Positions 30,770 to 49,610 of a stretch of DNA of 64,000 nt are shown here, piece after piece. The DNA comes from a virus (taxonomy: Duplodnaviria > Heunggongvirae > Uroviricota > Caudoviricetes). A program made the translations under genes and the position numbers. How positions within the stretch are numbered: position 1 is the first letter of the stretch; each line of letters starts with the position of its first letter. Where the stretch lies: IMG/VR virus record IMGVR_UViG_3300042885_000900. One strand, given 5' to 3'. Under the pieces are notes generated by a model. The model made no database searches and was not told the origin of the DNA. It worked only from the letters and a program-made list of their open reading frames with translations.

Positions 30770-32383
30770 TTATATTGTTATTATCGTTACTGTATTATTA
30801 ACTTGTAGATATTGTATATCACCATCAGGGCTTCCGCTGTTGCAAGTCATAAGAGTTGATGGTACAGTTAGTGTGATTGTGTTAGCCATAATACTATTAA
30901 ATACGTCATTATCTAAAACTGTTCCTCCTAGGTCAGTACAAGCTGGTAGGCTAATTGTTGTTAATGATGTGCAAGCATAGAAACAATAATAACCTGCTGT
31001 TGTTAATAGTGGTAAATCTATTGTTGTTAGTGATGTACAATCGTAGAAACAATAATCACCTGCTGTTGTTAATAGTGGTAAATCTATTGTTGTTAGTGAT
31101 GTACAATCGTAGAAACAATAATAACCTGCTGTTGTTAATAGTGGTAAATCTATTGCTGTTAGTGATGTACAATATGCAAAACAATAATCACCTGCTGTTG
31201 TTAATAATGGTAAATCTATTGCTGTTAGTGATGTACAATATGCAAAACAACCATAACCTGCTGTTGTTAATAGTGGTAAATCAACTGTTGTTAGTGATGT
31301 ACAATATGCAAAACAATAATCACCTGCTGTTGTTAATAATGGTAAATCTATTGCTGTTAGTGATGTACAATATGCAAAACAACTATAACCTGCTGTTGTT
31401 AGTAATGGTAAGTTTAAATTAATTAAATTTACACATTCGCCAAAAGCACCGTAATCATTTTGTGGACTATCCTGCCATCCATAAGCAATTGTACAAGCAG
31501 GTAAATCAACTGTTGTTAAACCATAGCAATAAGTAAAAGCATCACCACCAACTGATGTTATACAATTTGCTGTATCTACAACACTAATCAAAAAAGTATT
31601 ATAGTTGTAATCATACATTAAAGCTGGCTTCACTTTAATATTACTACCACCTATTAAACTAACTTCATTCCCAACCACTTCTACACTTGTAAATGGATTA
31701 CCATATGTAGGCAAATCAAAGAACGTATTCCAATCTTCTACACTACTAGAATCTCCTACTAATAAATCTGCATTTGCTATATCATCAAATGTTAGTCTTA
31801 ATCCAAGAGTTGATGGTGGTGTAGGTGTAGGTGTCATTGTCGGTGTTTGAGTTGGCGTAGGCGTTGGAGTTTCAGTATTTGTCGGAGTAGGAGTAGGTGT
31901 TTCTGTATTTGTAGGCGTAGGAGTAGGTGTTTCTGTATTTGTAGGCGTAGGAGTAGGTGTTAATTCATTAACACAGCAAGGAAATTCTGAAACATAACAA
32001 CTATCATAAGCTAAATCGTCAGCAATGAAGGATTCCTGAATATTAATATTAAGTTTTTCTCTAATTGGTAAAATAAGAACACCATCAGAATTTCTTAACA
32101 TAAATTCACCCTCATATCTACCAACACGATTGGTGTCTTTTGATGTGAATTGGTAATATATGTAATATTCTGGTTCGGCATTGGGGTCCATTGAGGTTTT
32201 CTCAACAAATCCGCCCGGTCTTGAAGTGATTTTTGGTATCCCCGTTTCAACATCCACCATTGAGAAGAAAATGGAAGATACCTCTATCATATCCATAAAA
32301 TTATTATAATCGTTTCTTCCGTTTTTTACGACTTCTAATTTAATTACCGGTAATGTAGAATTTTTTTTGATATAGAAATTCAT
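30770..32383 (-). CDS. Virion-type adhesin: BppU-like N-terminal domain, Pro/Thr stalk, capped BspA-type LRR domain
   Basis: [10 protein letters not shown]...YYQF...DT...G.YEGEF N-terminus; (TP)n linker; 22-aa LRRs. Confidence 0.75.
30955..31416 (-). repeat. Seven tandem 66-bp coding repeats (22-aa LRR)
   Basis: ACCTGCTGTTGTT recurs at 30992, 31058, 31124, 31190, 31256, 31322, 31388. Confidence 0.95.
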
Positions 32384-32428: not shown

Positions 32429-34105
32429 TTAACTCTCTTTTCTTAATGAACCATCGTAATGTTCAAATCTATCGTGTTCTGTTGGTGTTAGTAATAGTAA
32501 TCCTGGTTTAACGTTACCTTTAATTGTTTCTTGATAAGAGTACGACATAAGAGTTTGTTCGTGAGGATGAGCCCATTTTGTTTCCAAATAACATTTATAA
32601 TTACCTTCTTTTGTTAATACAATCGGCCAATTCGATAAATGGGATTCACCTGTTATATATGGTAACCCTTTATGAATATGTATTTCATCAAATTTTGTTT
32701 TAGGTGAATTGGGGTCTAAACCTTGAACCGGTAATTTAGGGTTGTTTGGCCAATGTTTTTGTCTAAAATCTTGTGGGACGTTATACCAACTCCACTGCAC
32801 ACTATGGTCACCAAAAAACTCACTAAAATTTAACTTTAAAAAATCAAAATTCTCTTTTTGAATAATTCCTAAAGATTTTTGATATAAATTGTCGACAAAT
32901 CTTGGGAATCCATTTCTACACACCTCACCTTTTTTAGGGTAAAACGCCATGTCATCTTCAAAAAAGTAATAAAAATCCAAATCAGTTTCATCGAAATGTT
33001 CAGCAACAAATACCCTACCACCAACAATTCCAATATTATCTTTTTTAATATGTTCAAAACCATATTGTTCACATAGTTCAATATATCTCGGTGTTGTGGT
33101 TAAATCAGTTGAATTATCTAATAAGAATTTCTTTGGTTTCTCCACAAAATCTTTATCGTAGTCCAACATAGATTGGATAAGAACCTCTAATTGTTTTGGT
33201 GAGTTAAATGTGATTACATAAAGAGCTACTTTTGAAGTGTCCAAATTATTCACAACAACATCTTTAGACACTTCCGATTTAACCTCAACCGTCATATCTT
33301 TTAAATCCTCAAAGAATTTACCCATTAACCCATTACCCTCAATTTCCGAGTAAGTAATTAAGTTTGGGTATTTGTATGTCATAATTGTAAATAATGACTC
33401 TTCAGTACCCATTGACCCATTTGAAAGTGTTTCATTCATTAATCCGTAATAAATGGTATTAATTTCCGATATAACATCTTTTTTTCCACCAAAGAAACCT
33501 GCTCTAGCAACCATATTAACAGGTTTACCGGCTAAATCACATAATTCTTGATACTTGAATCCGTGAATTTCGTTATTGGTTTCATAAGGAAAACAAACAA
33601 AGTGAAAGTTCTTAACTAACTGGGGTAATTTATCTAAAACTTTATCATGGGTAAAGTACCCAGGGTGGATTGTGTTGGTTAACCCAGCATCAATCCAAAA
33701 CATATATTCTGACTCAAACTTATCTAAAATTTTTGCATCGTGTAATAAATAAACTTTTGACATAACCAAAGGGTTATACATTTCTAATTTGGCTTGTGTC
33801 GAATCTGTTAACCAACCAACTTGGTTATACCAATCAGGGTTGGTTCTTATTTTTTGAATTTTATCGTAAAATTCACTATTTTTAAACCAAGATAAACTTC
33901 TACGAACAAATTGAGTGTTTTCGGAGCGTCTATTATCTAACACAAATTTTTCTAATTCTTCATCACCAAAAATTATCATATTTACATCAACTTGTAATAG
34001 TTGTTGGAATTTATCTAAATAATGTTGGAATGAGCGAGACCACCCTTCTTGAAGGTCACCTCTTCCAATATCCCATAATCCTGTTACTAATGTTACTTTA
34101 TTCAT
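32429..34105 (-). CDS. HtrL/YibB-like glycosyltransferase fused to second GT-A-like domain
   Basis: TLVTGLWDIGR, MSKV, FWIDAG, GFFGG, TEES; second domain with FFEDD. Confidence 0.7.
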   Translation of the reverse strand: MNKVTLVTGLWDIGRGDLQEGWSRSFQHYLDKFQQLLQVDVNMIIFGDEELEKFVLDNRRSENTQFVRRSLSWFKNSEFYDKIQKIRTNPDWYNQVGWLTDSTQAKLEMYNPLVMSKVYLLHDAKILDKFESEYMFWIDAGLTNTIHPGYFTHDKVLDKLPQLVKNFHFVCFPYETNNEIHGFKYQELCDLAGKPVNMVARAGFFGGKKDVISEINTIYYGLMNETLSNGSMGTEESLFTIMTYKYPNLITYSEIEGNGLMGKFFEDLKDMTVEVKSEVSKDVVVNNLDTSKVALYVITFNSPKQLEVLIQSMLDYDKDFVEKPKKFLLDNSTDLTTTPRYIELCEQYGFEHIKKDNIGIVGGRVFVAEHFDETDLDFYYFFEDDMAFYPKKGEVCRNGFPRFVDNLYQKSLGIIQKENFDFLKLNFSEFFGDHSVQWSWYNVPQDFRQKHWPNNPKLPVQGLDPNSPKTKFDEIHIHKGLPYITGESHLSNWPIVLTKEGNYKCYLETKWAHPHEQTLMSYSYQETIKGNVKPGLLLLTPTEHDRFEHYDGSLRKES

Positions 34106-34110
34106 TGTTT

Positions 34111-35034
34111 TTATATTTTAAAATTTTTTATATCATGCCACATCATATAGAAAGGTTTTAATGGATTTTTTTCTTTATCCCACATTTTATAGTGATAATC
34201 ATCGTGTTCTCCGGATGCAAATGTGTTAAAAATAAATGTAATTTTTTCGTCTTCACTGATTAAATCATAAGATGGTTTCATAATTACTTCTTCTGTACAA
34301 AGTATATTTTTTTCTAATATTTTTTCAGTAAATTCCCAAAATAAATTTATGTATTTTTTTAATATTTGAGTATCACCCCCAAACATACCACCGACCGGAT
34401 AGGGTGATTCAAAAGGTTTGTCTAATATTCCGTGTTGTAAAAAAGGATAACTTATTTGAGGACCATATGAACAAACAAACATTATTTTATTTTCACATAT
34501 TTTATTTAATTTATTATATATTTCGCTATCAATTATTTTTGAAAAATTAAACACATCTAAATGAGCCCACCAATCTGTTGGTACGCCTAAATTTTCATAA
34601 TCCGTATTATAAACTTTAGAGTACATCCAAGGGAATATTCCCGGGTGTTGCAAACCAACATCAACCCAATAAACTTTATCAAACCCATCAAGTTCTCTTT
34701 CCATAACATCAAATTTTCCCCACATTATTTCAGGACCTCTTCCATCTAAATCGGTATCAAAATTATTATTTCTAATTTTTTTAATTTCATTATGGTATTT
34801 TACATCAGATAGTTCTAATATTTTTAACTCTAAATTAGTTAAATCATATCTTACTTTAATATCGTTAAGTTCGTCGTAATTTTTACTATGAGTATAGCAG
34901 ATAACCGGTAAACTACTACCAATACAATGAGAAATTAATGACCCTTGATATCTTATTTTTCTAATTGGGGAGACTCCTTGATATGGATATCCTTCAACAT
35001 CCATCCAATATGTGGTAACAATTTTAGTTTTCAT
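34111..35034 (-). CDS. HtrL/YibB-like putative glycosyltransferase
   Basis: KIVT, WGKF, YWVDVG, GGMFGG, TEE motifs parallel the neighbour. Confidence 0.6.
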   Translation of the reverse strand: MKTKIVTTYWMDVEGYPYQGVSPIRKIRYQGSLISHCIGSSLPVICYTHSKNYDELNDIKVRYDLTNLELKILELSDVKYHNEIKKIRNNNFDTDLDGRGPEIMWGKFDVMERELDGFDKVYWVDVGLQHPGIFPWMYSKVYNTDYENLGVPTDWWAHLDVFNFSKIIDSEIYNKLNKICENKIMFVCSYGPQISYPFLQHGILDKPFESPYPVGGMFGGDTQILKKYINLFWEFTEKILEKNILCTEEVIMKPSYDLISEDEKITFIFNTFASGEHDDYHYKMWDKEKNPLKPFYMMWHDIKNFKI

Positions 35035-35061
35035 AATTTTTTTTATTTATATTTTTTTATT

Positions 35062-35814
35062 TTAAAATCTAATATACAATTGTTCTGATTTATTGTAAAA
35101 TTGGAAACATTGTTGTAGGAAATGATTAAAAGCGTTATCAAAATGCCATTTCATTCCGGCCTCTAAAGCTGATATACCAATTTCAAATCCTTCGGCATAA
35201 TTTCTAATTTTATTTTCAATACTGTACCATAAAAATTGTTCCCATCTTTGGACAAAAAATCTAAATTTATATGAATTTTTAAATATCATAAATTGTTCAT
35301 TAACACAATGAGCTTCATCCCATTTATCGTATTCTAACATATCATAATCTATTAATTTTTGCATAAAAAAACTACCTTCAGGATGGGCTCTACTATCACC
35401 AATTCTTGCTGGTCTCTCAAATACAAAATCATAATCGTTTTCTTTAGTCCAATTTAACATATTTAAAACTTTTTTTTCTGAAAAATGTTCAAACATTGTC
35501 CAATCACCATCTGAAAAAATTATAAATTCATATCCTTCAGAATTAGGGTTATTTTTTTCATACTCTAAAATATGTTTTAGAGATAATACTTTTAAATTAT
35601 AATGAAAACTTGTTGTACCAACCGCTTCGTGATGTAATGATGGAGGGTTAATTACTTTAATTTTAAATCTATCACCTAAATCGGGGAAATTTTCATTTGT
35701 TGTTGTTATGAAAAAATCGCAGTTAGATGTTCTTGACGCTAAATCAGAATAAAATTGAATTGTTTTCTTTTCGTATTCTTCACCAATCGATAATGTTGTA
35801 AAACAATATTTCAT
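35062..35814 (-). CDS. Putative GT-A fold glycosyltransferase
   Basis: N-terminal CFTTLSIGEEY, DxD (FSDGD); operon context. Confidence 0.5.
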   Translation of the reverse strand: MKYCFTTLSIGEEYEKKTIQFYSDLASRTSNCDFFITTTNENFPDLGDRFKIKVINPPSLHHEAVGTTSFHYNLKVLSLKHILEYEKNNPNSEGYEFIIFSDGDWTMFEHFSEKKVLNMLNWTKENDYDFVFERPARIGDSRAHPEGSFFMQKLIDYDMLEYDKWDEAHCVNEQFMIFKNSYKFRFFVQRWEQFLWYSIENKIRNYAEGFEIGISALEAGMKWHFDNAFNHFLQQCFQFYNKSEQLYIRF

Positions 35815-35815
35815 A

Positions 35816-36496
35816 TTATAAGTTAAGGTCTTTTAAATAATTCAAAGCTTGTATTGCACTTGGAACTAATGGTTTATCATTCTCGTCAATTTGCATTCCT
35901 ATAAAAAAATCTTTATTATCTCTATGGATATAGTTTTCTTCACTATCATATCCACAATAGAAGATATTGTTTTTATCAATATTTTCCATATATAATTGTA
36001 GTATTGTTTGGTCGGAACCCCAAACTAATTCATTGTTTTTAATAAATTCATTGAAGTGTTCCTCAAATAAATTTATTTTACGTTTAATTCCAAATAGCCC
36101 ACTTGGTACTGGTGAATGCCAAGGATGGTCTCTTATTATAAAATAATCATTATCTGTTTTTAACCAACTATTAATATAACTAACTTCTCGATGACTAAAT
36201 CTACTATCTAAATCTCTAACAATTGATGGAGTATCCTCTAAAAAACTCAAGAATCTCCAAAAATATGGGAAATGAATTGATTCTAACCCACCTATAGTTA
36301 AATCTTTAACATTAATTAAGTTGGCACCTAATTCAGATAAAATTTTAATGTATTCTGTTAGGATAAAGTCACTATGATAATAAATTCTAATTTCCCAATC
36401 AGGTAATAAAGAATTAACCTCGACGGTATTTTTAACTGCACCAATATAATATTTCATATTGGTTCCAAATAATGTGAATGATACGATTGGTCTCAT
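35816..36496 (-). CDS. Putative glycosyltransferase-like protein
   Basis: SFTLFG, WRFL, RDLDSR, IIRDHPWH, DQ..L motifs; operon context. Confidence 0.55.
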   Translation of the reverse strand: MRPIVSFTLFGTNMKYYIGAVKNTVEVNSLLPDWEIRIYYHSDFILTEYIKILSELGANLINVKDLTIGGLESIHFPYFWRFLSFLEDTPSIVRDLDSRFSHREVSYINSWLKTDNDYFIIRDHPWHSPVPSGLFGIKRKINLFEEHFNEFIKNNELVWGSDQTILQLYMENIDKNNIFYCGYDSEENYIHRDNKDFFIGMQIDENDKPLVPSAIQALNYLKDLNL

Positions 36497-37344
36497 TTTT
36501 CATAAATATTTTTTACGTTTATATTTGAATATCTTTCTTCGTCATCAACAATTAAATTAACGTAAGTGTTGTAAACAGGGTTATCTGAATTCATTCCCGA
36601 GTTTGGGCCGTCATTGGTTAAAGGCCAATATATTTTTTCAGCATTTGATAAAAAACAAGCCCAAAAAGAAAAAGTTCCTTGTGCCGCAATTATTTTATTA
36701 AAAGACGTGATTTCTGAAAAAACATCAAGTATATCACCATCAATTAATTTAGGGTTATATTTTTCTAATTTATTAATTAATGATTGATGTTTATTTATGT
36801 GGTCAAATGAAATATATAAATTATCAAAAGTTTCTTGAGATATTATATTAAGGTAATAACTATCCGGTAAAACAAAACTCCCATCGTGATTACTACTCCT
36901 TAACATAATCACTAAATCATTACTACCCCTTTTATCTTTAACAATACTTTTAAAATATTCTTTAACTTTAATTTTATATGGTTTGATGTAATCATATTTT
37001 GAAAAATATGATTGGTTTATAAATCCGTGATTTGGGTAGGATTGTATTAAATTTTCAATACTACCTAATTGTATAATATCACCATCTTGAATAACTTTAA
37101 TTGGGTTATCCACAATATTTCCTTTAACACCTTTAAATGGAAACATAATTTCATTGTATTGTCCGTTTTTAGTGTCTTCTCTTCTTATTAAGGCATTTTC
37201 CGGAGATATTAACTCGTACCCTAGTAGTTCGCTAATTATTCTACAAGCGGAATATATAAACAATTTATTACCCAAATTTTTTCTTGGAGATGAAAAATAA
37301 CCACCCTCTAAATATGAATCGTATTCATCATAAATTTTAACCAT
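36493..37344 (-). CDS. Alpha-1,2-fucosyltransferase-like protein (GT11)
   Basis: LGNKLF, MLRSS (cf. HxRxGD), YY, GTFSFWACFL. Confidence 0.7.
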   Translation of the reverse strand: MVKIYDEYDSYLEGGYFSSPRKNLGNKLFIYSACRIISELLGYELISPENALIRREDTKNGQYNEIMFPFKGVKGNIVDNPIKVIQDGDIIQLGSIENLIQSYPNHGFINQSYFSKYDYIKPYKIKVKEYFKSIVKDKRGSNDLVIMLRSSNHDGSFVLPDSYYLNIISQETFDNLYISFDHINKHQSLINKLEKYNPKLIDGDILDVFSEITSFNKIIAAQGTFSFWACFLSNAEKIYWPLTNDGPNSGMNSDNPVYNTYVNLIVDDEERYSNINVKNIYEK

Positions 37345-37347
37345 TTT

Positions 37348-38595
37348 TTATAAATTACCCGTTATTCTTTCACACCAACCTTTTGACGTACTAAACGGCC
37401 AAACAACCCAGTATTTTGGTTTATGAACTGTTTGAAATTCTCTCCAAACTTTACAATACCCATCAGGGTCTCTCATCATATTATTAATTTCATTAATGTC
37501 AGCGTCTCTTCTATTTAAAGTTTCATCATTCTCGTCGTGGAAAGCAACTACCCAAAACTCATAATCCTTCTCCGGTACTTGAGTAAATCCAATATCAATA
37601 CAATGTTTGAAGATGCTAGCATAACTCGCCAACCATTCTTCTTCTGTTTCATAAATTGTTGGATTGGGGGCGTAATGTTTGTCTAATGTATATTGTTGAA
37701 CCGCTCTATTTGAAAATTTAAGACCTGAATAAATTTCATAATCCCTTAAAGTTCTTTCAGTTCCAAAACCATAATAACTAAAATCCATAGTGACCTCTTC
37801 ACCATCCATACCAAATAATTGACGATTTTTTAAATGAGATAATTCGTTTTTCTTACCCCACTCTTTATCATCATCCCATTGTTTGGTTCTACCCTTACGA
37901 GTATATTCGTGCCAAATAACGGTTTTATGTGGGTGGAATAAATCATATCCGTGAGTATATGCTCTAACGGCAATTGATATTTCTTCACCGTGAAAATAGA
38001 ACTCAGGGTCGTGTTGAACCTCGACACTAAATTGTCCTACTGTAAATGCCATATGGGCGGAGTAAAATCTTGAGGTAACGGGTTCTTTAAGGTTTTCCCA
38101 CCCCGGAATTGTTTCAGGTAAGAAGAAGACGGCACCTTCTGGTATAAATCTATCAAACGACATTCTCCATGGGTCTCTAACTCTCCCTGCCGGGTCATTG
38201 TCAGGGTCAAATGAAGAAACATACCCTGTCAATAAAGGTTTCTTAAATCCTTTCTTTTGAAGTTGTTTAACCATTTTGATTAAGGTGTCATCCCAATCTT
38301 TCTCAAATCTCATGTGAGAGTCAATTTGTAGGGTATATTCTTCACCTTTATATAATTGTTGTACTTGGTTTCTTGCCCAACAAACACCTTTGGATTCGGT
38401 GTATAAAACGTCAACAACTCTAAATCTTTTATCTTTTGCGTATTCAGATAAATCATCAAACCCGTCTTCCGGGTGATATTGACGACATATTCCAATTACC
38501 AAATTTTTAGGTTTTTTCGCATTCTCCAACATTGACTTAATTGTTGGAATAAGTTGGGGGTCACGATAGGACGCGATTTGTACAAAAATTTTCAT
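37348..38595 (-). CDS. GT60-family polypeptide/hydroxyproline N-acetylglucosaminyltransferase
   Basis: IFVQIASYRDP, SKGVCWAR, LQIDSHMRF..WD, FHGEE, RAYTHGYD, WHEY.R. Confidence 0.85.
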   Translation of the reverse strand: MKIFVQIASYRDPQLIPTIKSMLENAKKPKNLVIGICRQYHPEDGFDDLSEYAKDKRFRVVDVLYTESKGVCWARNQVQQLYKGEEYTLQIDSHMRFEKDWDDTLIKMVKQLQKKGFKKPLLTGYVSSFDPDNDPAGRVRDPWRMSFDRFIPEGAVFFLPETIPGWENLKEPVTSRFYSAHMAFTVGQFSVEVQHDPEFYFHGEEISIAVRAYTHGYDLFHPHKTVIWHEYTRKGRTKQWDDDKEWGKKNELSHLKNRQLFGMDGEEVTMDFSYYGFGTERTLRDYEIYSGLKFSNRAVQQYTLDKHYAPNPTIYETEEEWLASYASIFKHCIDIGFTQVPEKDYEFWVVAFHDENDETLNRRDADINEINNMMRDPDGYCKVWREFQTVHKPKYWVVWPFSTSKGWCERITGNL

Positions 38596-38670
38596 ATTTA
38601 CCTTAATTTATTTAAAAAATAATATTTAAACGAAAAAGATAAATATGAAAATAATTTATTGTGGATTAAT

Positions 38671-41253
38671 TTATGGGTAAATCATAATTAGTTCTAAATA
38701 ACCGGTAGATTGTTGTCCGTATAATTTATTACCAATTGCAAATATTAAATTATATTCCGTTGTAAATGATTGGAAGACCGTCCCATCGGAATTTAAAATT
38801 ATCCAATTTAATGATGGTGTACCATTATATGAAGTAAAAGTACCCCAAAGTAATAATTTATTTGTCCATATTATTGTACAGTAAGAACTAAGGTCTGCTG
38901 TTCCACCTGATAATCCGGTACCACTATTAAAACTAGGGTCAATAGTTCCATCAGACATTAATTTAAGAATTCTGTTGACAGGTGTTCCATTGTACATAGT
39001 AAATCCTCCACCATTGTAATTAGTACCAACAACATAAAAGGATGTTTCTCCGGATATTCGAAAAGTATTAATTGCTTCCTCTCCGTAACTATTAAACCCT
39101 GTACCATAATTAAAACTATCGTCTTTATATCCATTAGATTGTAATTTAATAATATGGTTTGCAGAAATACCACTAAACGACGTGAAATACCCCGTAACAT
39201 ACATAGAATCATCAGGATTAACTAACACACCTTGAGGGATAGTAGGTGCTCCGGCAAATCCTGTTGTTGCTGAGAAAGTCATATCCATAGTACCACCACT
39301 ACTTAGTTTTGCTAAACCATAGATAGGGGTAGTAACTCCATTATATGTCGAAAAATATCCCGGAACTATAATATTACCCAATGAATCAATTCCCGGTACC
39401 GCCGTATAAAAACCGTTAAATCCTGAACCCATAACAAAAGTGTTATCAATACTACCATCAACATTTAATCTAACGATTCTATTTTTGGATACACCACTAT
39501 ATGATGTTAAAAATCCTGTCGCAATTATCTTACCGTCAGGTTGTTGTATGATTGATTCACCATTGTAAAAATAGTCATATGGACCAGCAAATCCTGTACC
39601 ACCAGTAAATGAATAATCAATTGTTAAATCTTGATTTAATTTTATTATACCTCCAGCAGGAACCACATTATTTTCACTATAACCTGTATATGCACCATAG
39701 AAATATCCGCTAGTGGAATTATCAATAAAATCAATTAAATAGGCTGAGTCGTTAGGTTCAAATCTATATTGAGGTGTTGGTGACGGTGTCATTGTTTGAG
39801 TTGGAGTTATTGTTGGTGTCAAAGTCGGAGTTTGTGTTGGTGTTTGACTCGGTATGGGTAACGAACCACTAATGTCAAAAGGACAAGTAAGATTAAAAGC
39901 CGATATAGTGTGAGGAGTATTTGCATAATAACTACTAATATATCCTTTATATCCGTCTTTAAACAGTATTCTAGGCCCACTACCCATATTAATACTTCCA
40001 CTAAGGTTGAGTGTTTGAGTTGAGGTTATACCCGTTATATTATAAGGACTTGATAAAGTATATCTAATTAGATTATTACCACTATTAAACGTAAATAGAT
40101 ACAAACCGTTATTTTGAAAATTAAAATCAGAGACAAATCCGGTCGCAGAGGTAGAGGTTAACGTACCACCAATTATATCCCAAGCACTTGTTAATGTGTA
40201 TTTCTTTAAACCTCCGGTCCCTAATAATACCATAGTTAACCCATCAGGAGTAAATTTAACAACACTTAAACTTGTGCCATATGTTGTAGCTGACGCACTA
40301 AGACTCATTGTGGTTATATCCCAAGGAGTACTTACCGTAAATTTTCTTAAAACACCTGAACTAGCATTACAAACAAATATTTTTGTACCATCAGGTGAAA
40401 AACAGTGTCCTTGAGCACTACTTACAATAGTGTCGGTATTTATAGATACCGCTGCCGGTATTGCATATACTCCAGATGCAGCCGATTGAAAACCATTTGC
40501 AATTATAGTCGATACATCCCAAGGGGTACCTAAATTATACATTATAATTGGGTCATATCCTGTACTTGAACCTACTCCAGTATTATGTCGTGTGAAATAT
40601 ACTTTTGTACCATCCGGATAAAAAGATGAATAACTATTTTGCATCAAAACAGTATACTTTTCATTATTGTAAATTGTTTGTGGAATACATGCAGATACAT
40701 CAGTCGGAGTTACCGTTGGTGTCAGAGTATTTGTTGGCGTAATTGTTGGTGTTTGAGTATTAGTCGGAGTTGGAGTTATTTCGGATGTTGGACAACTATT
40801 ATCAACACAGACACCATTAATTGAGATTATTACATTTTCATCTGCAAACGGTAATTTACCACAAACATAAAAAGTTGTTGATTGAGGGATAACACCTGTA
40901 AATATAGTTTCGTCACATAGAATATAACCAAAATTTAAATTTCCGGTTCCAACATTAATAAAGGCGATGCAACTACAAGAAAGATTTGTTGGTGTTATTG
41001 TTGGTGTTGGTGTTAGTGTTGGGGTGGGTGTAGGTGTAAAACAGTTAATGTAATTTATTGTTTCACATCCTTTACTGTCGGTAATAACTACTAATAATTG
41101 GTTAACCCCATTTAGTTGTGTAGGTGGCGTTATTGTTATGGGTGCTGAAGTCACACCACTAATCGCAAAATAACAATAAGTATATGTAATATCACATATT
41201 GTGATACTAAATGGTGGATGCCCTACTAAACTAGTTATTTCTATTGATTGCAT
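38671..41253 (-). CDS. Modular virion-type protein: Pro/Thr stalks, beta-propeller (PWD repeats) and delta-60-like repeat domain
   Basis: Three (TP)n tracts; FSPDGTK..PWDIT repeats; QPDGKII, RLNVDGSIDNTF..G.GF repeats. Confidence 0.7.
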   Translation of the reverse strand: MQSIEITSLVGHPPFSITICDITYTYCYFAISGVTSAPITITPPTQLNGVNQLLVVITDSKGCETINYINCFTPTPTPTLTPTPTITPTNLSCSCIAFINVGTGNLNFGYILCDETIFTGVIPQSTTFYVCGKLPFADENVIISINGVCVDNSCPTSEITPTPTNTQTPTITPTNTLTPTVTPTDVSACIPQTIYNNEKYTVLMQNSYSSFYPDGTKVYFTRHNTGVGSSTGYDPIIMYNLGTPWDVSTIIANGFQSAASGVYAIPAAVSINTDTIVSSAQGHCFSPDGTKIFVCNASSGVLRKFTVSTPWDITTMSLSASATTYGTSLSVVKFTPDGLTMVLLGTGGLKKYTLTSAWDIIGGTLTSTSATGFVSDFNFQNNGLYLFTFNSGNNLIRYTLSSPYNITGITSTQTLNLSGSINMGSGPRILFKDGYKGYISSYYANTPHTISAFNLTCPFDISGSLPIPSQTPTQTPTLTPTITPTQTMTPSPTPQYRFEPNDSAYLIDFIDNSTSGYFYGAYTGYSENNVVPAGGIIKLNQDLTIDYSFTGGTGFAGPYDYFYNGESIIQQPDGKIIATGFLTSYSGVSKNRIVRLNVDGSIDNTFVMGSGFNGFYTAVPGIDSLGNIIVPGYFSTYNGVTTPIYGLAKLSSGGTMDMTFSATTGFAGAPTIPQGVLVNPDDSMYVTGYFTSFSGISANHIIKLQSNGYKDDSFNYGTGFNSYGEEAINTFRISGETSFYVVGTNYNGGGFTMYNGTPVNRILKLMSDGTIDPSFNSGTGLSGGTADLSSYCTIIWTNKLLLWGTFTSYNGTPSLNWIILNSDGTVFQSFTTEYNLIFAIGNKLYGQQSTGYLELIMIYP

Positions 41254-41332: not shown

Positions 41333-44050
41333 ATGAAAAAAGTTTTAATTATAACCCCCCATTTAAGTACTGGTGGAGCACCACAAGTAACACTTAATAA
41401 GATAAAGTTATTAAAGAACGATTATATTATTAAATGTGTTGAATATTCTTTGGTTGCGTGGAACTATGTGGTTCAACGAAATCAAATTGAAAATATGTTA
41501 TTAGATAATTTCCACCCATTAGGAGATAATAAATCTGAACTTATTAATATTTTAAAAGATTTTAATCCTGATGTTGTTAGTATGGAAGAATTCCCTGAAT
41601 TCTTTATGGACGATGAAATAACAAAAGAAATATATAAGCAAGACCGTAGATACACTATTTTTGAAACTACCCACGATTCTAGCTTTCCTGTTACATCAAA
41701 AAGATTTTTTCCTGATAAATTCATATTTGTAAGTGCGTTTAACGCCTTTAGATATTCTATCTTTGATATTCCATATGAAATAATAGAATATCCTGTAGAT
41801 GTCAAAATAAAAAACCAAAAAGAGAATCAAGAGAAATTAGATTTAAACCCTAATTGGAAACATGTGGTTAATGTTGGTTTATTTACCGCTAGAAAAAACC
41901 AAAAATATCTTTTTGAGATTGCCGAATACTTAAAGAATTATAAAATTAAATTTCATTTTATTGGGAATCAAGCGGACAACTTTAAAGATTATTGGGGACC
42001 ATTGATAACTAACAAACCAAAGAATGCCATTATATGGGGTGAAAGAAATGATGTGGGTAGTTTTATTCAAGCATCCGATGTATTTTTCTTTTCATCAAAA
42101 GGTGACCGAAATAATAAGGAATTAAACCCTATCGCCATTAAAGAGGCTTTAGAGTATAAGATACCGATGATGATGTATAATTTGGAGGTTTATTGTGATA
42201 AATACAATGATAAAGAATCAATAATCTTTTTAACCGGAGATATAAAACAAGATTCCGAAAACTTATTAAACATATTAGGTCTTGAGATTGACAATAATTT
42301 AATCTCATCCATAAATGATGATGAAGTAATTATTATCAGTACTTACCCCGACACCATTAAACGCAAAAATCTAACGATTGAGTGTATAGAAAGTTTCAAA
42401 AAATTAGGTAGAAAAATTATATTAGTTTCTCATTATCCGGTACCAAATGAAATACAGGAGATGGCGGATTATTATATATTTGACTCAAATAATTTAATGA
42501 TACCTCATTCATATTATACTCACTTCTATAATAATACAGACCAATATAATACTCAAATAAACATCAATGGGTTATCAAATTCAAATCAATCTTTGGCGGT
42601 ACACATGAATTTTATGAATGGTGCTAAATTGGCTAAAGATATTGGTGCAACCAAATTTATGATAATCACTTATGATGTTATTCTAAATGATTTAGACATA
42701 CCATTAATTGAAGAATATTTTAATAAATTAACAACTTGGAACTGTTGTTTATCCTATATGGATAATGGTATTGAAACGACATCAATGGTGTTTAAAACCA
42801 GTTATTTTCTAAATACTTTTTTAGATATTAATGATGAAGTTACCTTTAATAATCATTGTTTAGAATTAAAATGTCACAATTTTTTAGAAAATTACTATAT
42901 GAAAATTTTAGAAGGTAAAGAAAATATTTGGATTGAATATAATAATAAAAAAACAATATTACCGAATTCAGGTTTGGGGGTATCATCTAATTCTGAATAT
43001 TATTCAATTTTACCAGTTAATGATACTAAAAATAGGTGGGTGTTTTATTTTTATACATATAATATTGATAATCGTAGATTGGAATTATCAATTAATAAAT
43101 CGGGTAAAAACATCTTTAATGATTCTATAATTATTTCCGAACATAAGTTAGATTTAGTAACCAATAGAGCAAAATATTTTAAACATATCGATTATGATGG
43201 AGAACCTATTGAAATTATCATTTCATTTTATGATGGAAATAATTTACATAAAACAGAAACTTACGAATTAAATGATGTAACAATTCACGAATATCGTAAT
43301 AACGGGTTCTTTAAAGAAATTAATATTAACCAATCTTTAAAATATAATGTTAAAGTATTACATTTACAAACAACCATAGACGACAGTAGAGAGCAACTAT
43401 CAAGAGAATCTGTTAAAAGAGTTTGTGATTTTGGGTTTAATTATGTATTACATCAAAATGAGGTGTTTTCATCATTACCACCATCACATAATTGTTTAAG
43501 ACCTCATAATGTTAGATTAGAAAAATATACTAATATTAACGACCCTGAATACGGGAATGCTTTAACCCCAACTCATTATGGATGTTTTGAATCATTCAAA
43601 TTGGGGATTATGTCTGAATTTGATAAAGATTTAGATTTTCTAATTGTGTGTGAAGGAGATTGTATAATTGAGGTCCCTATGGAGGAATTTGTAAATAAAG
43701 TCAATCAAGTTTGTGAAATCATTAATAATGAAGATATATCTTATTTCTCATTTGGAGATACTAAAACATTAGATTTTGGGTGGCATCAATCTGATGTGGT
43801 TAGAGAAATACCTAATCAAGATTTACTTTTTATTACTGATAAAATAATTGGTTTGCAATGTATCATGTTTCCAATAAAAACTAAAGAATACCTTATCAAT
43901 AAATTAAGAACCGAAAAATGGGATTGTATGGACACATTTTTTAATATAATTTTTTCAGGTAAAAATATGGGGATACTAAAAAATAGAATAACAACTCAAT
44001 CAGACGGATATTCTTTAATTGATAAAGAATTAAAAACATTTATAAAATAA
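41333..44050 (+). CDS. Multidomain glycosyltransferase (GT4/GT-B plus two GT-A-like domains)
   Basis: HLSTGGAP, VGLF..RKNQ, ELNPIAIKEAL; central IISTYP..ILVSH; C-terminal GCF.S..IVCEGD (GT25-like). Confidence 0.75.
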   Translation: MKKVLIITPHLSTGGAPQVTLNKIKLLKNDYIIKCVEYSLVAWNYVVQRNQIENMLLDNFHPLGDNKSELINILKDFNPDVVSMEEFPEFFMDDEITKEIYKQDRRYTIFETTHDSSFPVTSKRFFPDKFIFVSAFNAFRYSIFDIPYEIIEYPVDVKIKNQKENQEKLDLNPNWKHVVNVGLFTARKNQKYLFEIAEYLKNYKIKFHFIGNQADNFKDYWGPLITNKPKNAIIWGERNDVGSFIQASDVFFFSSKGDRNNKELNPIAIKEALEYKIPMMMYNLEVYCDKYNDKESIIFLTGDIKQDSENLLNILGLEIDNNLISSINDDEVIIISTYPDTIKRKNLTIECIESFKKLGRKIILVSHYPVPNEIQEMADYYIFDSNNLMIPHSYYTHFYNNTDQYNTQININGLSNSNQSLAVHMNFMNGAKLAKDIGATKFMIITYDVILNDLDIPLIEEYFNKLTTWNCCLSYMDNGIETTSMVFKTSYFLNTFLDINDEVTFNNHCLELKCHNFLENYYMKILEGKENIWIEYNNKKTILPNSGLGVSSNSEYYSILPVNDTKNRWVFYFYTYNIDNRRLELSINKSGKNIFNDSIIISEHKLDLVTNRAKYFKHIDYDGEPIEIIISFYDGNNLHKTETYELNDVTIHEYRNNGFFKEININQSLKYNVKVLHLQTTIDDSREQLSRESVKRVCDFGFNYVLHQNEVFSSLPPSHNCLRPHNVRLEKYTNINDPEYGNALTPTHYGCFESFKLGIMSEFDKDLDFLIVCEGDCIIEVPMEEFVNKVNQVCEIINNEDISYFSFGDTKTLDFGWHQSDVVREIPNQDLLFITDKIIGLQCIMFPIKTKEYLINKLRTEKWDCMDTFFNIIFSGKNMGILKNRITTQSDGYSLIDKELKTFIK

Positions 44051-44054
44051 TAAA

Positions 44055-45218
44055 ATGGAAATAACTGGAAGTCATATTTATAAAAATTTAAAAATATCCC
44101 AACATGATTCAATATCGGAAAGTTTTGAAGAACTAATCATTTCTCTCAAACCTAGTCAAATTTTAGAAATAGGTACTTTTGGGGGTGGATTAACTTTATT
44201 AATTAGAGATTTATTAGATAATAACGGATTAAAAAATACTAGATTAATAACCTACGATATTAACACACCTTCCCATCTTATGGATTATGTGAGAGAAGGT
44301 TCAAAGATAGATGTTAGAGTTAAAAATATTTTCAATTCCGATTATAATGGTTTAATTGATGAACAGGAGATAATAGATATTATACAATCAAATGGGACAA
44401 CATTAGTTTTATGTGATGGGGGTAATAAAATAAATGAATTTAAAATATTGTCAAATTATTTAAAAGTTGGTGATGTAATTATGGCACATGATTACTCCCC
44501 AAATGAAGAACATTTTCAAAAACATATTAATAATCAAATATGGAATTGGTTTGAAATACAAGATTCAGATATTATTGACTCTTGTATTAAAAATAGTTTA
44601 ATCTCTTATATGGAAGAAAAATTTAGAAATGTTGTTTGGGTTTGTAAAATCAAATCACAAGTTTTGTTATCTATTTTAGTATGTTCTTTACTTGAGAGAA
44701 ATAATACATTTTTAAATAAATTAATTAATTCGGTTGAATCTCAAATCGGTGATAATCCGGTAGAATTTTTAGTATTTTCGGATAACGCGAAAAGGTCTAT
44801 TGGTGCAAAAAGAAATGATTTATTAAGATTATCAAAAGGAAAGTATGTTTCATTCATTGATGATGATGACCGAATTTCCGATACATACATTAAAGATATT
44901 CTTAACGAAATTGTTAATTGGTCACCAGATGTTATCGTTTTTGATGCGGAAATTTCATTTAATGGTTCTAACAATAAATTAGTTAAATATGGTAGGGAAT
45001 ACGATTATTGTGAAAAATCCGATGCGTATTATAGACACCCAAATCATTTAATGGTTCATAAAAAAGAAAATATTACCGAATTTTTTAACAACATTAATTT
45101 TGGTGAAGACGATGAATGGGCGTCGAGAATGTTACCAAGAATCGTAACACAGTCAAGAATAAATAAAATTTTATATTTTTACGATTACAACACCTCAACT
45201 AAAAAAATAATTAAATGA
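44055..45218 (+). CDS. SAM-dependent methyltransferase fused to GT2 glycosyltransferase
   Basis: ILEIGTFGGG, DGG, AHD; LSILVC, IGAKRN, FIDDDD, GED. Confidence 0.8.
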   Translation: MEITGSHIYKNLKISQHDSISESFEELIISLKPSQILEIGTFGGGLTLLIRDLLDNNGLKNTRLITYDINTPSHLMDYVREGSKIDVRVKNIFNSDYNGLIDEQEIIDIIQSNGTTLVLCDGGNKINEFKILSNYLKVGDVIMAHDYSPNEEHFQKHINNQIWNWFEIQDSDIIDSCIKNSLISYMEEKFRNVVWVCKIKSQVLLSILVCSLLERNNTFLNKLINSVESQIGDNPVEFLVFSDNAKRSIGAKRNDLLRLSKGKYVSFIDDDDRISDTYIKDILNEIVNWSPDVIVFDAEISFNGSNNKLVKYGREYDYCEKSDAYYRHPNHLMVHKKENITEFFNNINFGEDDEWASRMLPRIVTQSRINKILYFYDYNTSTKKIIK

Positions 45219-45844
45219 TGGAAAGATTTAATATTATAAATTACTTGATAGAAAACAATAATTATAAAAGTTTTTTGGAAATTGGGACTCAGGAGCGTAT
45301 CAATTTATCCAAAATAATTATTGATAAAAAAATTAGTGTTGACCCAGACCCAAATGTTAATAGTGATTTTAATATATCTTCCGATGATTTTTTTAAACAA
45401 AATATGGATAAATTTGATATTATTTTTATAGATGGACTACATCATGCCGATTTTGCGTATAGAGATATAATAAATTCATTAAAAATATTAAATAAAGACG
45501 GTTGCATTGTTGTTCACGATGTTATACCACATTCATATGAAAGCCAACTAATCCCGTTAGAAAAAACATTGTTAAACGGTACATCAATATGGAATGGTGA
45601 TGTTTGGAAAACATGGATTAAATTAAGAACTGAAAGAAAAGATTTAATGATGAAAGTTGTGAATACCGACCACGGATGTGGTATCATACATTTAACAAAC
45701 TATAATAACGGAGATTTTTTAGAATCTTACAATAATGGCTATTATGAATATAATAAAGAACTTATATTATCATCATTAAATCTAATTTCTTCTGACAAAT
45801 TTTTAACATTATTTAAAACCCCAATTTCTAAACAATATGATTAA
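45215..45844 (+). CDS. Class I SAM-dependent methyltransferase
   Basis: FLEIG, VDP, FDIIFIDGLH, IVVHD, WNGDVWK. Confidence 0.85.
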   Translation: MMERFNIINYLIENNNYKSFLEIGTQERINLSKIIIDKKISVDPDPNVNSDFNISSDDFFKQNMDKFDIIFIDGLHHADFAYRDIINSLKILNKDGCIVVHDVIPHSYESQLIPLEKTLLNGTSIWNGDVWKTWIKLRTERKDLMMKVVNTDHGCGIIHLTNYNNGDFLESYNNGYYEYNKELILSSLNLISSDKFLTLFKTPISKQYD

Positions 45845-48698
45845 TAATATTTTTAACATAGATAAAAATACCATATCTATTGATGTGATTTGTTTATCAA
45901 ACACTAAAGATAAAAGTTTTTATAATTTAACAAAACAGACATTAGACACCCTTTTACTAACCAAAGGGGGGTATGTTTTTAACATAAAATTAATAGAATC
46001 TAATATTGAATCTAAATTTATTTATGATTATCCGAATTTAAATGTTATCACACCAAATGAAAAATTTAATTATAATAAATTCTTAAATATTGGGTTGTCA
46101 TATTGTGAAAGTGAATGGATATTAATTATCAATAATGATTTAATATTTACTGAAGATTGGTTAAATAACATATTAATTGAATATTCTTTAAATCCTAACA
46201 TAAAATCTTTTTCACCCTTTGAACCTGAATGGGTTCAAAATTATTATAATGGTTCATTTAAAGAGGGTAATGTTTTTTTAGGTTATAATCCTTGTGTTGA
46301 GTTATACGGGTGGTGTATATTAGTTAAGAAAGAAGTAATAGATTTAATAGGCGGGTTTGATGAACAATTTGAATTTTATTATCAAGATAATGATTATGGT
46401 TTAACTTTACAAAAGCACAATATTCCACATGCTTTAATTAAAAATTCTATAGTTTATCATTTAGTATCTAAAAGCCATGAATTAATACCGAATGATAAAC
46501 ACAAGTCAAACACAAGAATAATGGAAAAATTATTTAGAAATAAATGGGAAAAATGGGAAAAAATAAATAACTATATGAGAATAACACAAGTAACTCCGGG
46601 AGTAATCCCAATACCCCCTAATGGATGGGGAGCCGTCGAAAAAATATTATGGTGCTACCATAACGAATTTAATTCTTTGGGTCACGAATGTACTATAAAA
46701 TATTTAAATGAGGCGTCTACCGATAATTCGGATATTATACATATCCATATTGCCAATTTAGCATTAGATGCTGCGGAAAGAGGTGTCCCTTACATCTTTT
46801 CATTACACGACCATCATGTTGTTCATTATGGAAAAGATTCATTTAACTATCGTCAAAATTTAGAAGCAATACAAAAATCCGTAATTTCATTTTGTCACGC
46901 AGAATATTTAGTTGATTACTTTGAAGGGACTGATAAATTATTCTATCTATCTCATGGAGTGGAAGTTGATTATTTTAAAGTCGATAATTTATATAGAGAA
47001 GAACATAAATTACTTTGTATTGCTAATAATGGTATTGGAGGTGACTCCTCGTTTGATAGAAAAGGGTTTAGATACGCAATAGAATCTGCAAAAAAATTAA
47101 ATCTTCCAATAACAATTGCCGGACCGGAAAACAATAAATTATTTTTTCAACACCACCCTGACTTATTAGAATACGAAAAATTAACGCTATTATTAACCAA
47201 TTTAAGTGAAGATGAAATTTTAGAGTTATATAAATCACACTCAATATTTTTACACCCATCCATATTGGAAGCTGGTCACCCAAATTTAACATTATTAGAG
47301 GCTGTCTCTTGTGGACTTCCTGTTGTTGGAACTTACGAGGGGTCTCAAAAGATTGACGGTATGATTATATCCGAAAGAAATTCTGATTTAGTTGCGAATG
47401 CTATCTCGGAAATAATAAATCAATATAAACATTATGTTGATTTAACCCAAAACAATAGAACTAAATTTGATTGGACAACTATTTGTAAAAGAATGGTTAA
47501 AATGTATGAGGTGGTTACCTCAATAAAAAAGGAATACTCATCTGAAGAAACCAAAAATTTATTTATAAAAAATTTTAACAATATAACGAAAACAATGGGA
47601 TTAATAAACTCAAATAACCAAAATGTAAAACCAGATGTAAAATATAATTTTCATTTTGTTAATCAACCTTTTTTTGAAATATTAGGTGATAGTGATAAAA
47701 AATTTAATGTTGAATTTTATGATAGTAGTGGATTGCATCATCACACAGAATTATCGTCAAATATGTGGACTAAAGTAAGTCGAGAATACTTTACAAATTG
47801 GTATATCAAAGTTTCTTGTGATAATGATATTGTTTTTGAATATAACCTTGATTTAACAAATAGAAGAGTTTTCATTTCTTTTGAATCTAGTTCATTGGGA
47901 GATAGTATTGCTTGGATACCTTATGTTTTAGAATTTAAAAAACAACATAATTGTATTGTAATTGTCTCAACTTTTTGGAATAAATTATTTAAAAAATCCT
48001 ATCCTGAATTAGAGTTTATTGAACCGGGTTCAACGGTACATAATTTATTTGCCTTATACAGAATTGGGTGGTTTGAAAACGAAACAAAAGAACCGTTTTA
48101 CCCTAATACAATACCATTACAAAAAACAATCACAAATCTTTTAAAATTAGAACATTCCGAAATTAAAGCAACACTTGATTTTACACCTAAAGTAAAACCT
48201 ATGGTTGAGAAGTATATAACAATTGCCGATGAATCAACCGCAGGATTAAAACTATGGAATAACCCAAAAGGGTGGCAAGAACTTATTGATTATTTAACTG
48301 GATTAGGTTATAAAATTATTAATATATCTAAACACGGTGGAAATTATAAAAATGTTACAAAATTAAAAGACACATCAATAGAGAATACAATGAACTATAT
48401 TCACCATAGTGAATTCTTTATTGGGTTATCAAGTGGATTGTCTTGGCTTTCATGGGCGTTAGGAAAACATGTTGTTATGATTTCTAATTTTACCGAATCT
48501 AACCATGAATTTACCACAAACTGTACTAGAATTACAAATGATTCTGTATGTAATGGATGTTGGAATAAGTCAGAATTTAGATTTGACCGTGGTGATTGGA
48601 ATTGGTGTCCCGAAAATAAAGGAACACCTCGTCAGTTTGAGTGTCACAAATCAATAACCTCTGAAATGGTGATAAAACAGATACAACATTTATTATAA
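45837..48698 (+). CDS. Triple glycosyltransferase fusion: GT2 + GT4 + autotransporter-type (AAH/TibC-like) heptosyltransferase
   Basis: NNDL..GGFDEQF..YQDND; IPPNGWGAVE..EAGHPNLTLLEA; SLGDSIAW, FIGLSSGLSWL, C-x2-C-x15-C-x11-C. Confidence 0.82.
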   Translation: MINNIFNIDKNTISIDVICLSNTKDKSFYNLTKQTLDTLLLTKGGYVFNIKLIESNIESKFIYDYPNLNVITPNEKFNYNKFLNIGLSYCESEWILIINNDLIFTEDWLNNILIEYSLNPNIKSFSPFEPEWVQNYYNGSFKEGNVFLGYNPCVELYGWCILVKKEVIDLIGGFDEQFEFYYQDNDYGLTLQKHNIPHALIKNSIVYHLVSKSHELIPNDKHKSNTRIMEKLFRNKWEKWEKINNYMRITQVTPGVIPIPPNGWGAVEKILWCYHNEFNSLGHECTIKYLNEASTDNSDIIHIHIANLALDAAERGVPYIFSLHDHHVVHYGKDSFNYRQNLEAIQKSVISFCHAEYLVDYFEGTDKLFYLSHGVEVDYFKVDNLYREEHKLLCIANNGIGGDSSFDRKGFRYAIESAKKLNLPITIAGPENNKLFFQHHPDLLEYEKLTLLLTNLSEDEILELYKSHSIFLHPSILEAGHPNLTLLEAVSCGLPVVGTYEGSQKIDGMIISERNSDLVANAISEIINQYKHYVDLTQNNRTKFDWTTICKRMVKMYEVVTSIKKEYSSEETKNLFIKNFNNITKTMGLINSNNQNVKPDVKYNFHFVNQPFFEILGDSDKKFNVEFYDSSGLHHHTELSSNMWTKVSREYFTNWYIKVSCDNDIVFEYNLDLTNRRVFISFESSSLGDSIAWIPYVLEFKKQHNCIVIVSTFWNKLFKKSYPELEFIEPGSTVHNLFALYRIGWFENETKEPFYPNTIPLQKTITNLLKLEHSEIKATLDFTPKVKPMVEKYITIADESTAGLKLWNNPKGWQELIDYLTGLGYKIINISKHGGNYKNVTKLKDTSIENTMNYIHHSEFFIGLSSGLSWLSWALGKHVVMISNFTESNHEFTTNCTRITNDSVCNGCWNKSEFRFDRGDWNWCPENKGTPRQFECHKSITSEMVIKQIQHLL

Positions 48699-48699
48699 C

Positions 48700-48725
48700 A
48701 AAAAACCCCAATTAAGGGGTTTTTT
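48700..48725. terminator. Bidirectional intrinsic terminator
   Basis: AAAAAACCCC-AATTAA-GGGGTTTTTT between convergent genes. Confidence 0.8.
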
Positions 48726-49600: not shown

Positions 49601-49610
49601 CTTTGTTTTT

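Follow-up and report, generated by a model that had tools for sequence, protein, structure and literature searches.

This study focused on a 64,000-nucleotide stretch of viral DNA (the window; IMG/VR record IMGVR_UViG_3300042885_000900, Caudoviricetes), and in particular on a minus-strand gene that a preliminary description had read as a polypeptide GlcNAc-transferase of glycosyltransferase family GT60, heading a six-gene operon directly behind a Thr/Pro-rich candidate substrate. The window is AT-rich (~26-39% GC). Genes for a tail sheath, a family B DNA polymerase (PolB), a helicase and collagen-like fibre proteins, one of them of 1564 aa, identify it as part of a large tailed phage, here an uncultured, low-GC jumbo phage from freshwater; its relatives in IMG/VR include genomes of up to 322 kb that are rated complete. 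The GT60 open reading frame (ORF) runs from ATG to stop and specifies 415 aa (P0001). Behind it lie five co-directional ORFs with gaps of -4 to 27 bp, extending to 32429, so that the group of six is indeed present, but the full co-directional run comprises ten genes, from that of the 860-aa protein P0002 (TP860) to PolB, and the limits of a six-gene operon are putative; the order after GT60 is four small ORFs, a 558-aa HtrL_YibB protein (P0007), a leucine-rich repeat (LRR) protein, a peptidase and PolB. The features considered are collected in Table 1.

Table 1. Features of the GT60 locus and of related genes, in window coordinates
Feature	Coordinates	Strand	Remarks
537-aa BspA-type LRR protein, second candidate acceptor	30770..32383	-	LRR_5 E 6.5e-40
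P0007, 558-aa conserved partner	32429..34105	-	HtrL_YibB domain aa 3-255 and C-terminal domain
Three ORFs of 226, 250 and 307 aa, rest of variable cassette	34111..36496	-	soluble
283-aa putative glycosyltransferase, variable cassette	36493..37344	-	GT11-like as lead only
P0001, GT60	37348..38595	-	GT-A catalytic domain aa ~1-300; C-terminal beta-sandwich aa ~325-415 (~90 aa)
75-bp spacer, candidate promoter element	38596..38670	-	ATATTTATC and TATTAT-rich box
P0002 (TP860), 860-aa candidate acceptor	38671..41253	-	ends 75 bp upstream of GT60
Divergent glycosyltransferase/methyltransferase block (905, 387, 209 and 953 aa)	41333..48698	+	GT1/GT4-type, GT2, GT9-like, Methyltransf_24 and CmcI-like domains
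GT9-like gene, APS kinase, sulfotransferase	48725..50871	-	family profile searches
333-aa further candidate acceptor	58434..59435	-	82-aa TP region from aa 70

The GT60 enzyme

The assignment of P0001 to GT60 proved firm. Profile PF11397 ('GlcNAc', GT60) matched aa 1-294, in two stretches, with E 1e-69 and a score of 236.1 bits where the cut-off is 21, and phrog_24687 matched over the full length (E 9e-168). Since the PF11397 family was found in none of 14 control genomes, a generic match can be discounted. No NCBIfam model was found for the protein, and a search of PDB by sequence returned a single, spurious match to T7 RNA polymerase (E 0.02) and no GT60 structure. The coordinates and the three motifs given earlier for the gene were all present, the motifs falling on conserved columns of the family: ASYRD at aa 8-12, IDSH at aa 91-94 and GEE at aa 203-205, inside HGEE. 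In an alignment of 39 diverse homologues, Y10, R11 and D12 of the first motif were nearly invariant; within the DxH motif (D92-S93-H94) D92 and H94 were invariant and S93 nearly so; G203 was nearly invariant, and E204, E205 and H229 were invariant. The GEE residues and H229 are candidates for the xED-type motif and the C-terminal metal-binding His of the GT-A core. No hydrophobic segment is present (maximum KD19 0.79), which marks the protein as soluble. Judged by its sequence, P0001 is a soluble, retaining GT-A glycosyltransferase of the Mn-type (DxH), belonging to CAZy family GT60.

An AlphaFold2 model built from the homologue alignment had a mean pLDDT of 96.2, and when it was compared with PDB by Foldseek the best ~40 matches were all polypeptide GalNAc-transferases (ppGalNAc-Ts; E ~3e-11). 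VIA-align gave a Z of 21.6 over 278 residues (rmsd 3.6) against GalNAc-T1 and of 20.0 against Toxoplasma TgGalNAc-T3, compared with values of 16.9 or less for generic GT-A enzymes. The modelled fold is thus nearest to that of the GT27 polypeptide GalNAc-transferases, the initiating enzymes of mucin-type glycosylation. The preliminary description had named a non-protein-acting clade of GT2 as the placement that would speak against its reading; the PF11397 match together with the GT27-like fold puts the enzyme elsewhere. The two families, GT60 and GT27, have in common a metal site of the DxH variant and a mode of action in which polypeptide Ser/Thr is glycosylated (PMC7185993), and the GT60 enzymes of Trypanosoma cruzi and Dictyostelium attach alpha-GlcNAc to Thr (PMC7185993, PMC3769586).

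The C-terminal ~90 aa, modelled separately (pLDDT 92.6), form a beta-sandwich with a generic FN3-like likeness only (Z 7.8) and no beta-trefoil; structure searches returned no specific fold relative. The same domain is present in full-length bacterial homologues. A lectin-like targeting role was considered for it and found no support in the structural tests.

A quick maximum-likelihood tree of GT60 proteins placed the clade of this phage (SH-aLRT 90) among Bacteroidota (Saprospiraceae, Lewinellaceae and Chitinophagaceae), and the host is probably a member of that phylum. The GT60 protein of the cultured phage XacN1 grouped instead with Burkholderiales and Neisseriaceae (support 99), and from these two separate placements it follows that phages hold GT60 in at least two lineages.

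Thr-Pro tracts beside GT60 in phages and bacteria

Translation bore out the statement that an 860-aa protein with three Thr-Pro (TP) tracts lies directly upstream of GT60. The tracts occupy aa 70-93, 155-186 and 466-496 of P0002 and separate, in order, an N-terminal module N1 (aa 1-72), a Cys-rich module N2 (aa 91-155), a middle domain and a propeller head of the DUF5122/delta-60 beta-propeller type (DUF5122 E 2e-38). In the 537-aa LRR protein a TP tract of 58 aa (aa 139-196) separates the N-terminal domain from the LRR head, and the gene for this protein, which keeps its position after the HtrL-like gene in relatives, flanks the other side of the variable cassette. This protein has a paralogue in the window (60057-63338, minus strand), also of BspA type; the two share 47-56% identity over their LRR parts and both bear TP tracts. 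Phage fibres are usually built from an N-terminus that is conserved, a stalk, and a head that can be exchanged. Proteins of the P0002 type are termed fibre-like here because they display the same plan, with TP tracts in the stalk, and it is from this architecture that we infer a location in the virion.

Close homologues of P0001 are abundant among metagenome proteins (more than 7,400), and 430 GT60 loci were confirmed in IMG/VR, 80 of which (GT60 identity 77-99%) were compared, 72 with upstream sequence. Among 50,697 phage records, megablast of the 6 kb around GT60 gave no match, and tblastn against phage records found a GT60 homologue in four Xanthomonas/Stenotrophomonas jumbo phages only. 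A TP-tract ORF stood directly upstream of GT60, on the same strand, at 62 of the 72 loci, with a median gap of 61 bp, compared with only 10.6% of the other ORFs of those loci that held such a tract, although the loci are phylogenetically non-independent, so that a Fisher P for the adjacency overstates the evidence. The upstream ORF ranged in length from 170 to 3178 aa while the position of the first TP tracts was kept. Modules N1 and N2 recurred at the start of this ORF in 50-51 of the 80 loci (28-64% identity); the middle and C-terminal domains of P0002 were found in 2 related loci only.

The surrounding genes combine constancy and exchange in a similar way. Relatives keep the order GT60 ... 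HtrL-like, LRR protein, PolB, and the HtrL-like gene lies downstream of GT60 in nearly all of them, at a distance that varies from 0.8 to 9.9 kb with differing gene content. One phage with a GT60 of 99% protein and 95% DNA identity has another cassette and another upstream gene. When window positions 32429-41253 were aligned with the closest complete relative (G001:171934-193788), DNA identity was 88-95% in the PolB, LRR/HtrL, GT60 and GT905 segments, and the cassette and the upstream TP gene were of unrelated DNA, a mosaic resembling that of O-antigen loci.

XacN1 encodes a P0001 homologue of 47% identity (ORF334) and, in the same block, an HtrL-like gene (ORF330); at the edge of this glycosyltransferase block, after the baseplate wedge genes, lies ORF325 (3313 aa), which bears a (TP)4 tract. 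Purified XacN1 virions gave at least two glycoprotein bands positive by periodic acid-Schiff staining, and its authors suggested that the phage's own transferases make the virion glycoproteins (PMC5852040).

Homologues of GT60 are present in many bacterial phyla, and a homologue of P0007 (HtrL558) stands directly beside GT60 in bacteria of many phyla; in one metagenomic protein (P0229) GT60 and HtrL_YibB are naturally fused. A strongly TP-rich ORF was found within 6 kb of GT60 at ~16 of the ~55 bacterial loci with full flanks. Whole genomes were searched for (TP)4-coding patterns, and in five chosen for a TP ORF near GT60 the sites beside GT60, as a fraction of those genome-wide, were 1/1, 1/1, 4/5, 10/17 and 54/58. 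Such tracts are rare in bacteria, and in GT60 genomes that have them the sites tend to adjoin GT60.

The TP proteins near bacterial GT60 genes fall into three groups: small repeat proteins with a leader of twin-arginine type, a PqqD-like protein with a TP tail, and VgrG spikes of the type VI secretion system (T6SS). The first group (L115:2189-3064, L133:9548-10129 and L138:4819-5457) consists almost entirely of (x)PTPT repeats, encoded beside GT60/HtrL genes, with leaders of twin-arginine type (RRRLLQVLG, RRKLLQALG and RRQFINYLLG). At the end of one of the three, a hydrophobic anchor and then a basic tail are arranged in the manner of a sorting signal. It would be unusual for a protein glycosylated in the cytoplasm to be exported by the twin-arginine (TAT) route. 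In the second group, a gemmatimonadotal protein encoded directly upstream of GT60 (L100:7215-7940) joins a domain resembling PqqD, whose fold is that of a peptide-recognition element, to a ~110-aa Thr/Pro/Ser/Ala tail. The third group was found in Ralstonia/Paraburkholderia (Burkholderiales), where TP-repeat VgrG genes lie 1-4 kb from GT60 (L137:10267-13131 and L159:13075-15564, both minus strand) and specify Phage_GPD, Phage_base_V and Gp5_trimer_C domains with long TP inserts; the Ralstonia gene alone holds 54 of the 58 (TP)4-coding sites of its genome. VgrG is a homologue of the phage-tail spike and is assembled in the cytoplasm, which fits a cytosolic GT60 acting on such proteins.

Acceptor protein and acceptor residue

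The favoured reading, which we regard as reasonably probable, is that P0001 initiates Thr-linked glycans in the cytoplasm on the phage's own TP stalks, and that these are extended by a swappable gene cassette. It is preferred on account of the GT60 family, the GT27-like fold, the solubility of the enzyme, the conserved gene order and the co-localisation with TP repeats. The suggestion that P0002 is the substrate gained comparative support from the 62 phage loci, the five bacterial genomes and the Schiff stain of XacN1.

Besides the non-independence of the phage loci, a number of observations weigh against this reading. The acceptor and the donor of prokaryotic and phage GT60 enzymes are argued from family analogy and gene neighbourhood. 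No TP-tract protein matches a known virion protein family, and PHROGs gave no structural annotation for any of them or for the N-terminal modules. The adjacent ORF is without a TP tract in 10 of the 72 relatives, ~70% of bacterial GT60 loci are without a strongly TP-rich ORF within 8 kb, and among five GT60 genomes without a nearby TP ORF four had no (TP)4 site and one had sites elsewhere. The many loci without a TP protein imply that the family must also use other acceptors.

It might then be supposed that the cassette glycosylates other proteins, such as capsid or tail proteins, the collagen-like 1564-aa fibre or a host protein, and that the TP tracts are mere flexible linkers. Mycobacteriophage glycans, which are carried on the C-termini of capsid and tail-tube proteins according to the account of Freeman et al. 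2023 given in PMC12619734, offer a precedent, and the phage and bacterial loci that are without a TP protein point the same way. However, GT60 and TP tract stay adjacent even where the distal portion of the upstream gene has been exchanged completely, the five bacterial genomes have their rare (TP)4 sites concentrated next to GT60, and the characterised GT60/GT27 enzymes prefer Thr/Pro-rich, mucin-like tracts. We consider acceptors of this other kind unlikely.

A second question is whether the modified residue would be threonine or hydroxyproline (Hyp). If P0001 glycosylated Hyp within the TP tracts, in the manner of the Skp1/Gnt1 pathway or of plant HRGPs, a prolyl 4-hydroxylase would have to come from the host or from an unrecognised phage gene. 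The founding GT60 enzyme, Gnt1, does act on Hyp, and three sets of genes further weigh on this side and against Thr: two giant, distantly related metagenome proteins, P0129 (2461 aa) and P0130 (1641 aa), in which four tandem GT60 domains are fused to 2OG-FeII_Oxy_3; two bacterial loci (L095 and L113) with a 2OG-Fe(II) oxygenase domain 2-7 kb from GT60; and a pair of 2OG-FeII_Oxy_3 genes (G002:C1:288908-291681) in a 295-kb relative, G002, with a GT60 of 78% identity. P0129 also bears an AhpC/TSA peroxiredoxin domain. The preliminary description had seen no prolyl hydroxylase in the window, and tblastn found no 2OG-Fe(II) oxygenase domain in the 64 kb. The wider search that it had advised, run here on relatives, gave a divided answer: no match to PF13640 or PF03171 in G001 and none to PF13640 in G003 or XacN1, but the two genes of G002, and these lie ~200 kb from its GT60. 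The GT27 enzymes, to which the fold of P0001 is nearest, are moreover Ser/Thr-directed. To judge from the fused and neighbouring oxygenase domains, some part of the GT60 family probably does follow a Hyp route; for P0001 it appears very improbable, and Thr is the simpler acceptor.

The cassette, the proposed pathway and known systems

Between GT60 and the gene of P0007 lie four small ORFs that make up the variable cassette. The first, of 283 aa, had been labelled GT11; the gene is there, but its match to PF01531 (GT11) fell below threshold (15.4 bits against a cut-off of 23.9, E 0.011, aa 207-240 only), and the label survives as a lead from the ESM atlas, where PF01531 was found in 16-27% of the members of its neighbour clusters. 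It also matched the glycosyltransferase family phrog_2644 (E 6.5e-4), and was found in few relatives only. The ORFs of 226, 250 and 307 aa gave no match in Pfam, PHROG or NCBIfam; they vary among relatives and are missing even from the phage with the 99% identical GT60 protein. P0007, the conserved partner, matched PF09612 (HtrL_YibB) at 72.1 bits against a cut-off of 24.1 (E 7e-20) and scored 75.9 with the NCBIfam YibB equivalog, below its cut-off of 264.9, and so is a member of the HtrL_YibB family rather than a YibB orthologue. Its C-terminal domain has a GT2-like lead, PF00535 being present in 25% of the third-ranked ESM atlas neighbour cluster.

On the far side of P0002 lie the divergent glycosyltransferase/methyltransferase block and, beyond it, a GT9-like gene (Glyco_transf_9 sub-threshold) with genes for an APS kinase (APS_kinase E 4.8e-20) and a sulfotransferase (Sulfotransfer_3 E 1.1e-14), which suggest, by their sequence, a sulfated product. 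The last two genes (49611-50871, minus strand) overlap each other and adjoin the GT9-like gene. A scan of 19 proteins encoded across 26955-58416, those of the cluster included, revealed a membrane-spanning segment in none, and the family searches run on these proteins found no flippase, polymerase or lipid-priming transferase, from which it is concluded that any glycan made is built by soluble cytoplasmic enzymes.

These features bear on two further explanations. The cluster could remodel an envelope glycan of the host (lipopolysaccharide core, O-antigen or capsule), for example to block superinfection, in which case the acceptor of GT60 would be a sugar or a lipid. The core loci of lipopolysaccharide and lipooligosaccharide are known to contain HtrL_YibB genes (PMC4172580), GT9-like genes are present, glycosyltransferase clusters of jumbo phages have been read as modification systems for capsular polysaccharide (PMC7824862), and variable cassettes between conserved ends resemble O-antigen loci. 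Yet no membrane priming transferase, flippase, polymerase or ligase was found among the cluster proteins, all of which are soluble, the fold of the GT60 protein is nearest to protein-acting enzymes, and the linkage to TP repeats in both phages and bacteria would be left unexplained; a role in the host envelope thus has little likelihood. Alternatively, the transferases might hypermodify the phage DNA, as glycosylated hydroxymethylated bases, against restriction. The cluster adjoins the PolB gene, and some viruses are known to encode glycosyltransferases that assemble glycans on DNA (Pyle et al. 2024, as cited in PMC12619734), but GT60 includes no known DNA glycosyltransferase, the bacterial homologues stand beside secreted TP proteins and VgrG rather than DNA-modification genes, and genes for sulfation and methylation together with more than 10 glycosyltransferase domains do not fit base modification. 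This explanation is extremely improbable.

The 75-bp spacer between P0002 and GT60 contains ATATTTATC, in which TATTTAT occupies 38639-38645. The motif ATATTTATC ... TATTAT lies ~45-50 nt before the GT60 ATG and is kept in most of 16 diverged relatives, at a constant distance from the ATG although the upstream coding sequence differs between them, which is compatible with a promoter belonging to GT60 itself, heading its own transcription unit. On both strands of the window TATTTAT precedes many start codons by 11-51 nt (upstream of 7772, 9677, 12252, 17634, 23885, 25445, 32383, 38595, 58416 and 60025), often as TATTTATA at -21 to -25. In upstream regions, that of the sheath gene included, it was found in sense at 15 of 39 and in antisense at 8 of 39, and it may be a promoter, possibly late, of the phage's own. 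TATTTAT is not over-represented across the window, and since the sense bias before genes is also modest it is regarded as a candidate element only. A scan for sigma-70 promoters and terminators gave counts no higher than those of shuffled sequence; the spacer contained no such site.

The pathway on which initiation at the TP stalks would depend can be outlined as follows. During infection, in the host cytoplasm, P0001 would transfer the first sugar to Thr of the TP stalks, which by family precedent would be an alpha-linked N-acetylhexosamine, probably GlcNAc from UDP-GlcNAc. P0002 is the first candidate acceptor; further candidates are the downstream LRR protein and the remaining proteins with TP tracts that the phage encodes. 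The HtrL_YibB/GT2-like P0007 and the swappable transferases would extend the glycan, and products of neighbouring genes may add methyl and sulfate groups, giving mucin-like, strain-variable glycan sleeves on the stalks. Possible roles for such sleeves are shielding from proteases and host defences, adhesion, and stiffening of the stalk. In this outline the acceptor residue, donor sugar, timing, position in the virion and function of the sleeves are inferred.

GT60 is listed as a family of prokaryotes and protists (PMC7185993), and literature searches on GT60/PF11397 in phages or bacteria found no functional study, so that its prokaryotic and phage members may be uncharacterised throughout. P0001 is a clear member of the family, and the phage system around it is an undescribed one. 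A broader proposal, which we advance tentatively and which falls somewhat short of probable, is that a mucin-type O-glycosylation of this kind is widespread in prokaryotes and phages, with a cytosolic GT60 and an HtrL-like transferase acting on Thr-Pro linkers (of phage fibres, VgrG and TAT-exported TP-repeat proteins), and that in an abundant lineage of freshwater jumbo phages a recombining cassette for extension, methylation and sulfation gives each strain a glycan 'serotype' of its virion. If this is so, mucin-type O-glycosylation has a bacterial and viral counterpart, carried out in the cytoplasm on Thr-Pro linkers, and the TP linkers of phage fibres, T6SS spikes and secreted repeat proteins, usually seen as inert spacers, will need to be read afresh. 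A function would also be given to a gene set present in thousands of metagenomic phages, and recombination of the glycan cassette could vary the phage surface along a new axis, with relevance to host recognition, evasion of defences and particle stability.

The closest known systems are those of protists. The enzymes TcOGNT-2 of T. cruzi and DdGnt2 of Dictyostelium share with P0001 the PF11397 domain, a GT-A fold similar to that of GT27 and the DxH motif, and have no ricin-type lectin domain, as is general for GT60 (PMC8724618); the alpha-GlcNAc that the characterised members place on Thr within Thr/Pro-rich tracts starts mucin-type O-glycans that other transferases extend (PMC3769586, PMC8724618, PMC7185993). 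They differ in residing in the Golgi as type II membrane proteins, with secretory mucins as their substrates, whereas P0001 is soluble, phage-encoded and predicted to be cytoplasmic, and has the extra C-terminal ~90-aa beta-sandwich common to its bacterial relatives. Gnt1 of the Skp1 pathway in Dictyostelium and Toxoplasma is, like P0001, a soluble, cytoplasmic GT60 protein, and comes first in a sequential pathway on a single protein, but it depends on a prolyl 4-hydroxylase and has a single Hyp of Skp1 as its target, while the candidate acceptors of P0001 are repetitive TP stalks. The animal ppGalNAc-Ts of GT27 also have the DxH motif, and a C-terminal His of which H229 is the candidate counterpart, and act on Thr/Ser in Pro-rich mucin domains; they belong to another CAZy family (12-19% identity), have a ricin-type lectin domain and work in the Golgi lumen with GalNAc as the donor.

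Among phages, the mycobacteriophages of the Che8/Corndog type provide the nearest parallel, since transferases encoded beside structural genes decorate the virion proteins of the phage itself in the host cytoplasm (Freeman et al. 2023, as cited in PMC12619734). The transferases there are of other families, the acceptors are the C-terminal tails of capsid and tail-tube subunits, and neither so large a strain-variable cassette nor genes for sulfate or methyl groups are mentioned.

The serine-rich-repeat adhesins of Gram-positive bacteria present a similar plan outside the phages. Their O-GlcNAc is likewise initiated in the cytoplasm, by GtfA/GtfB, on Ser/Thr repeats, and strain-variable extending glycosyltransferases are encoded beside the substrate gene, but initiation is by a GT4 pair of GT-B fold, the product leaves by accessory Sec export, and the system is not that of a phage.

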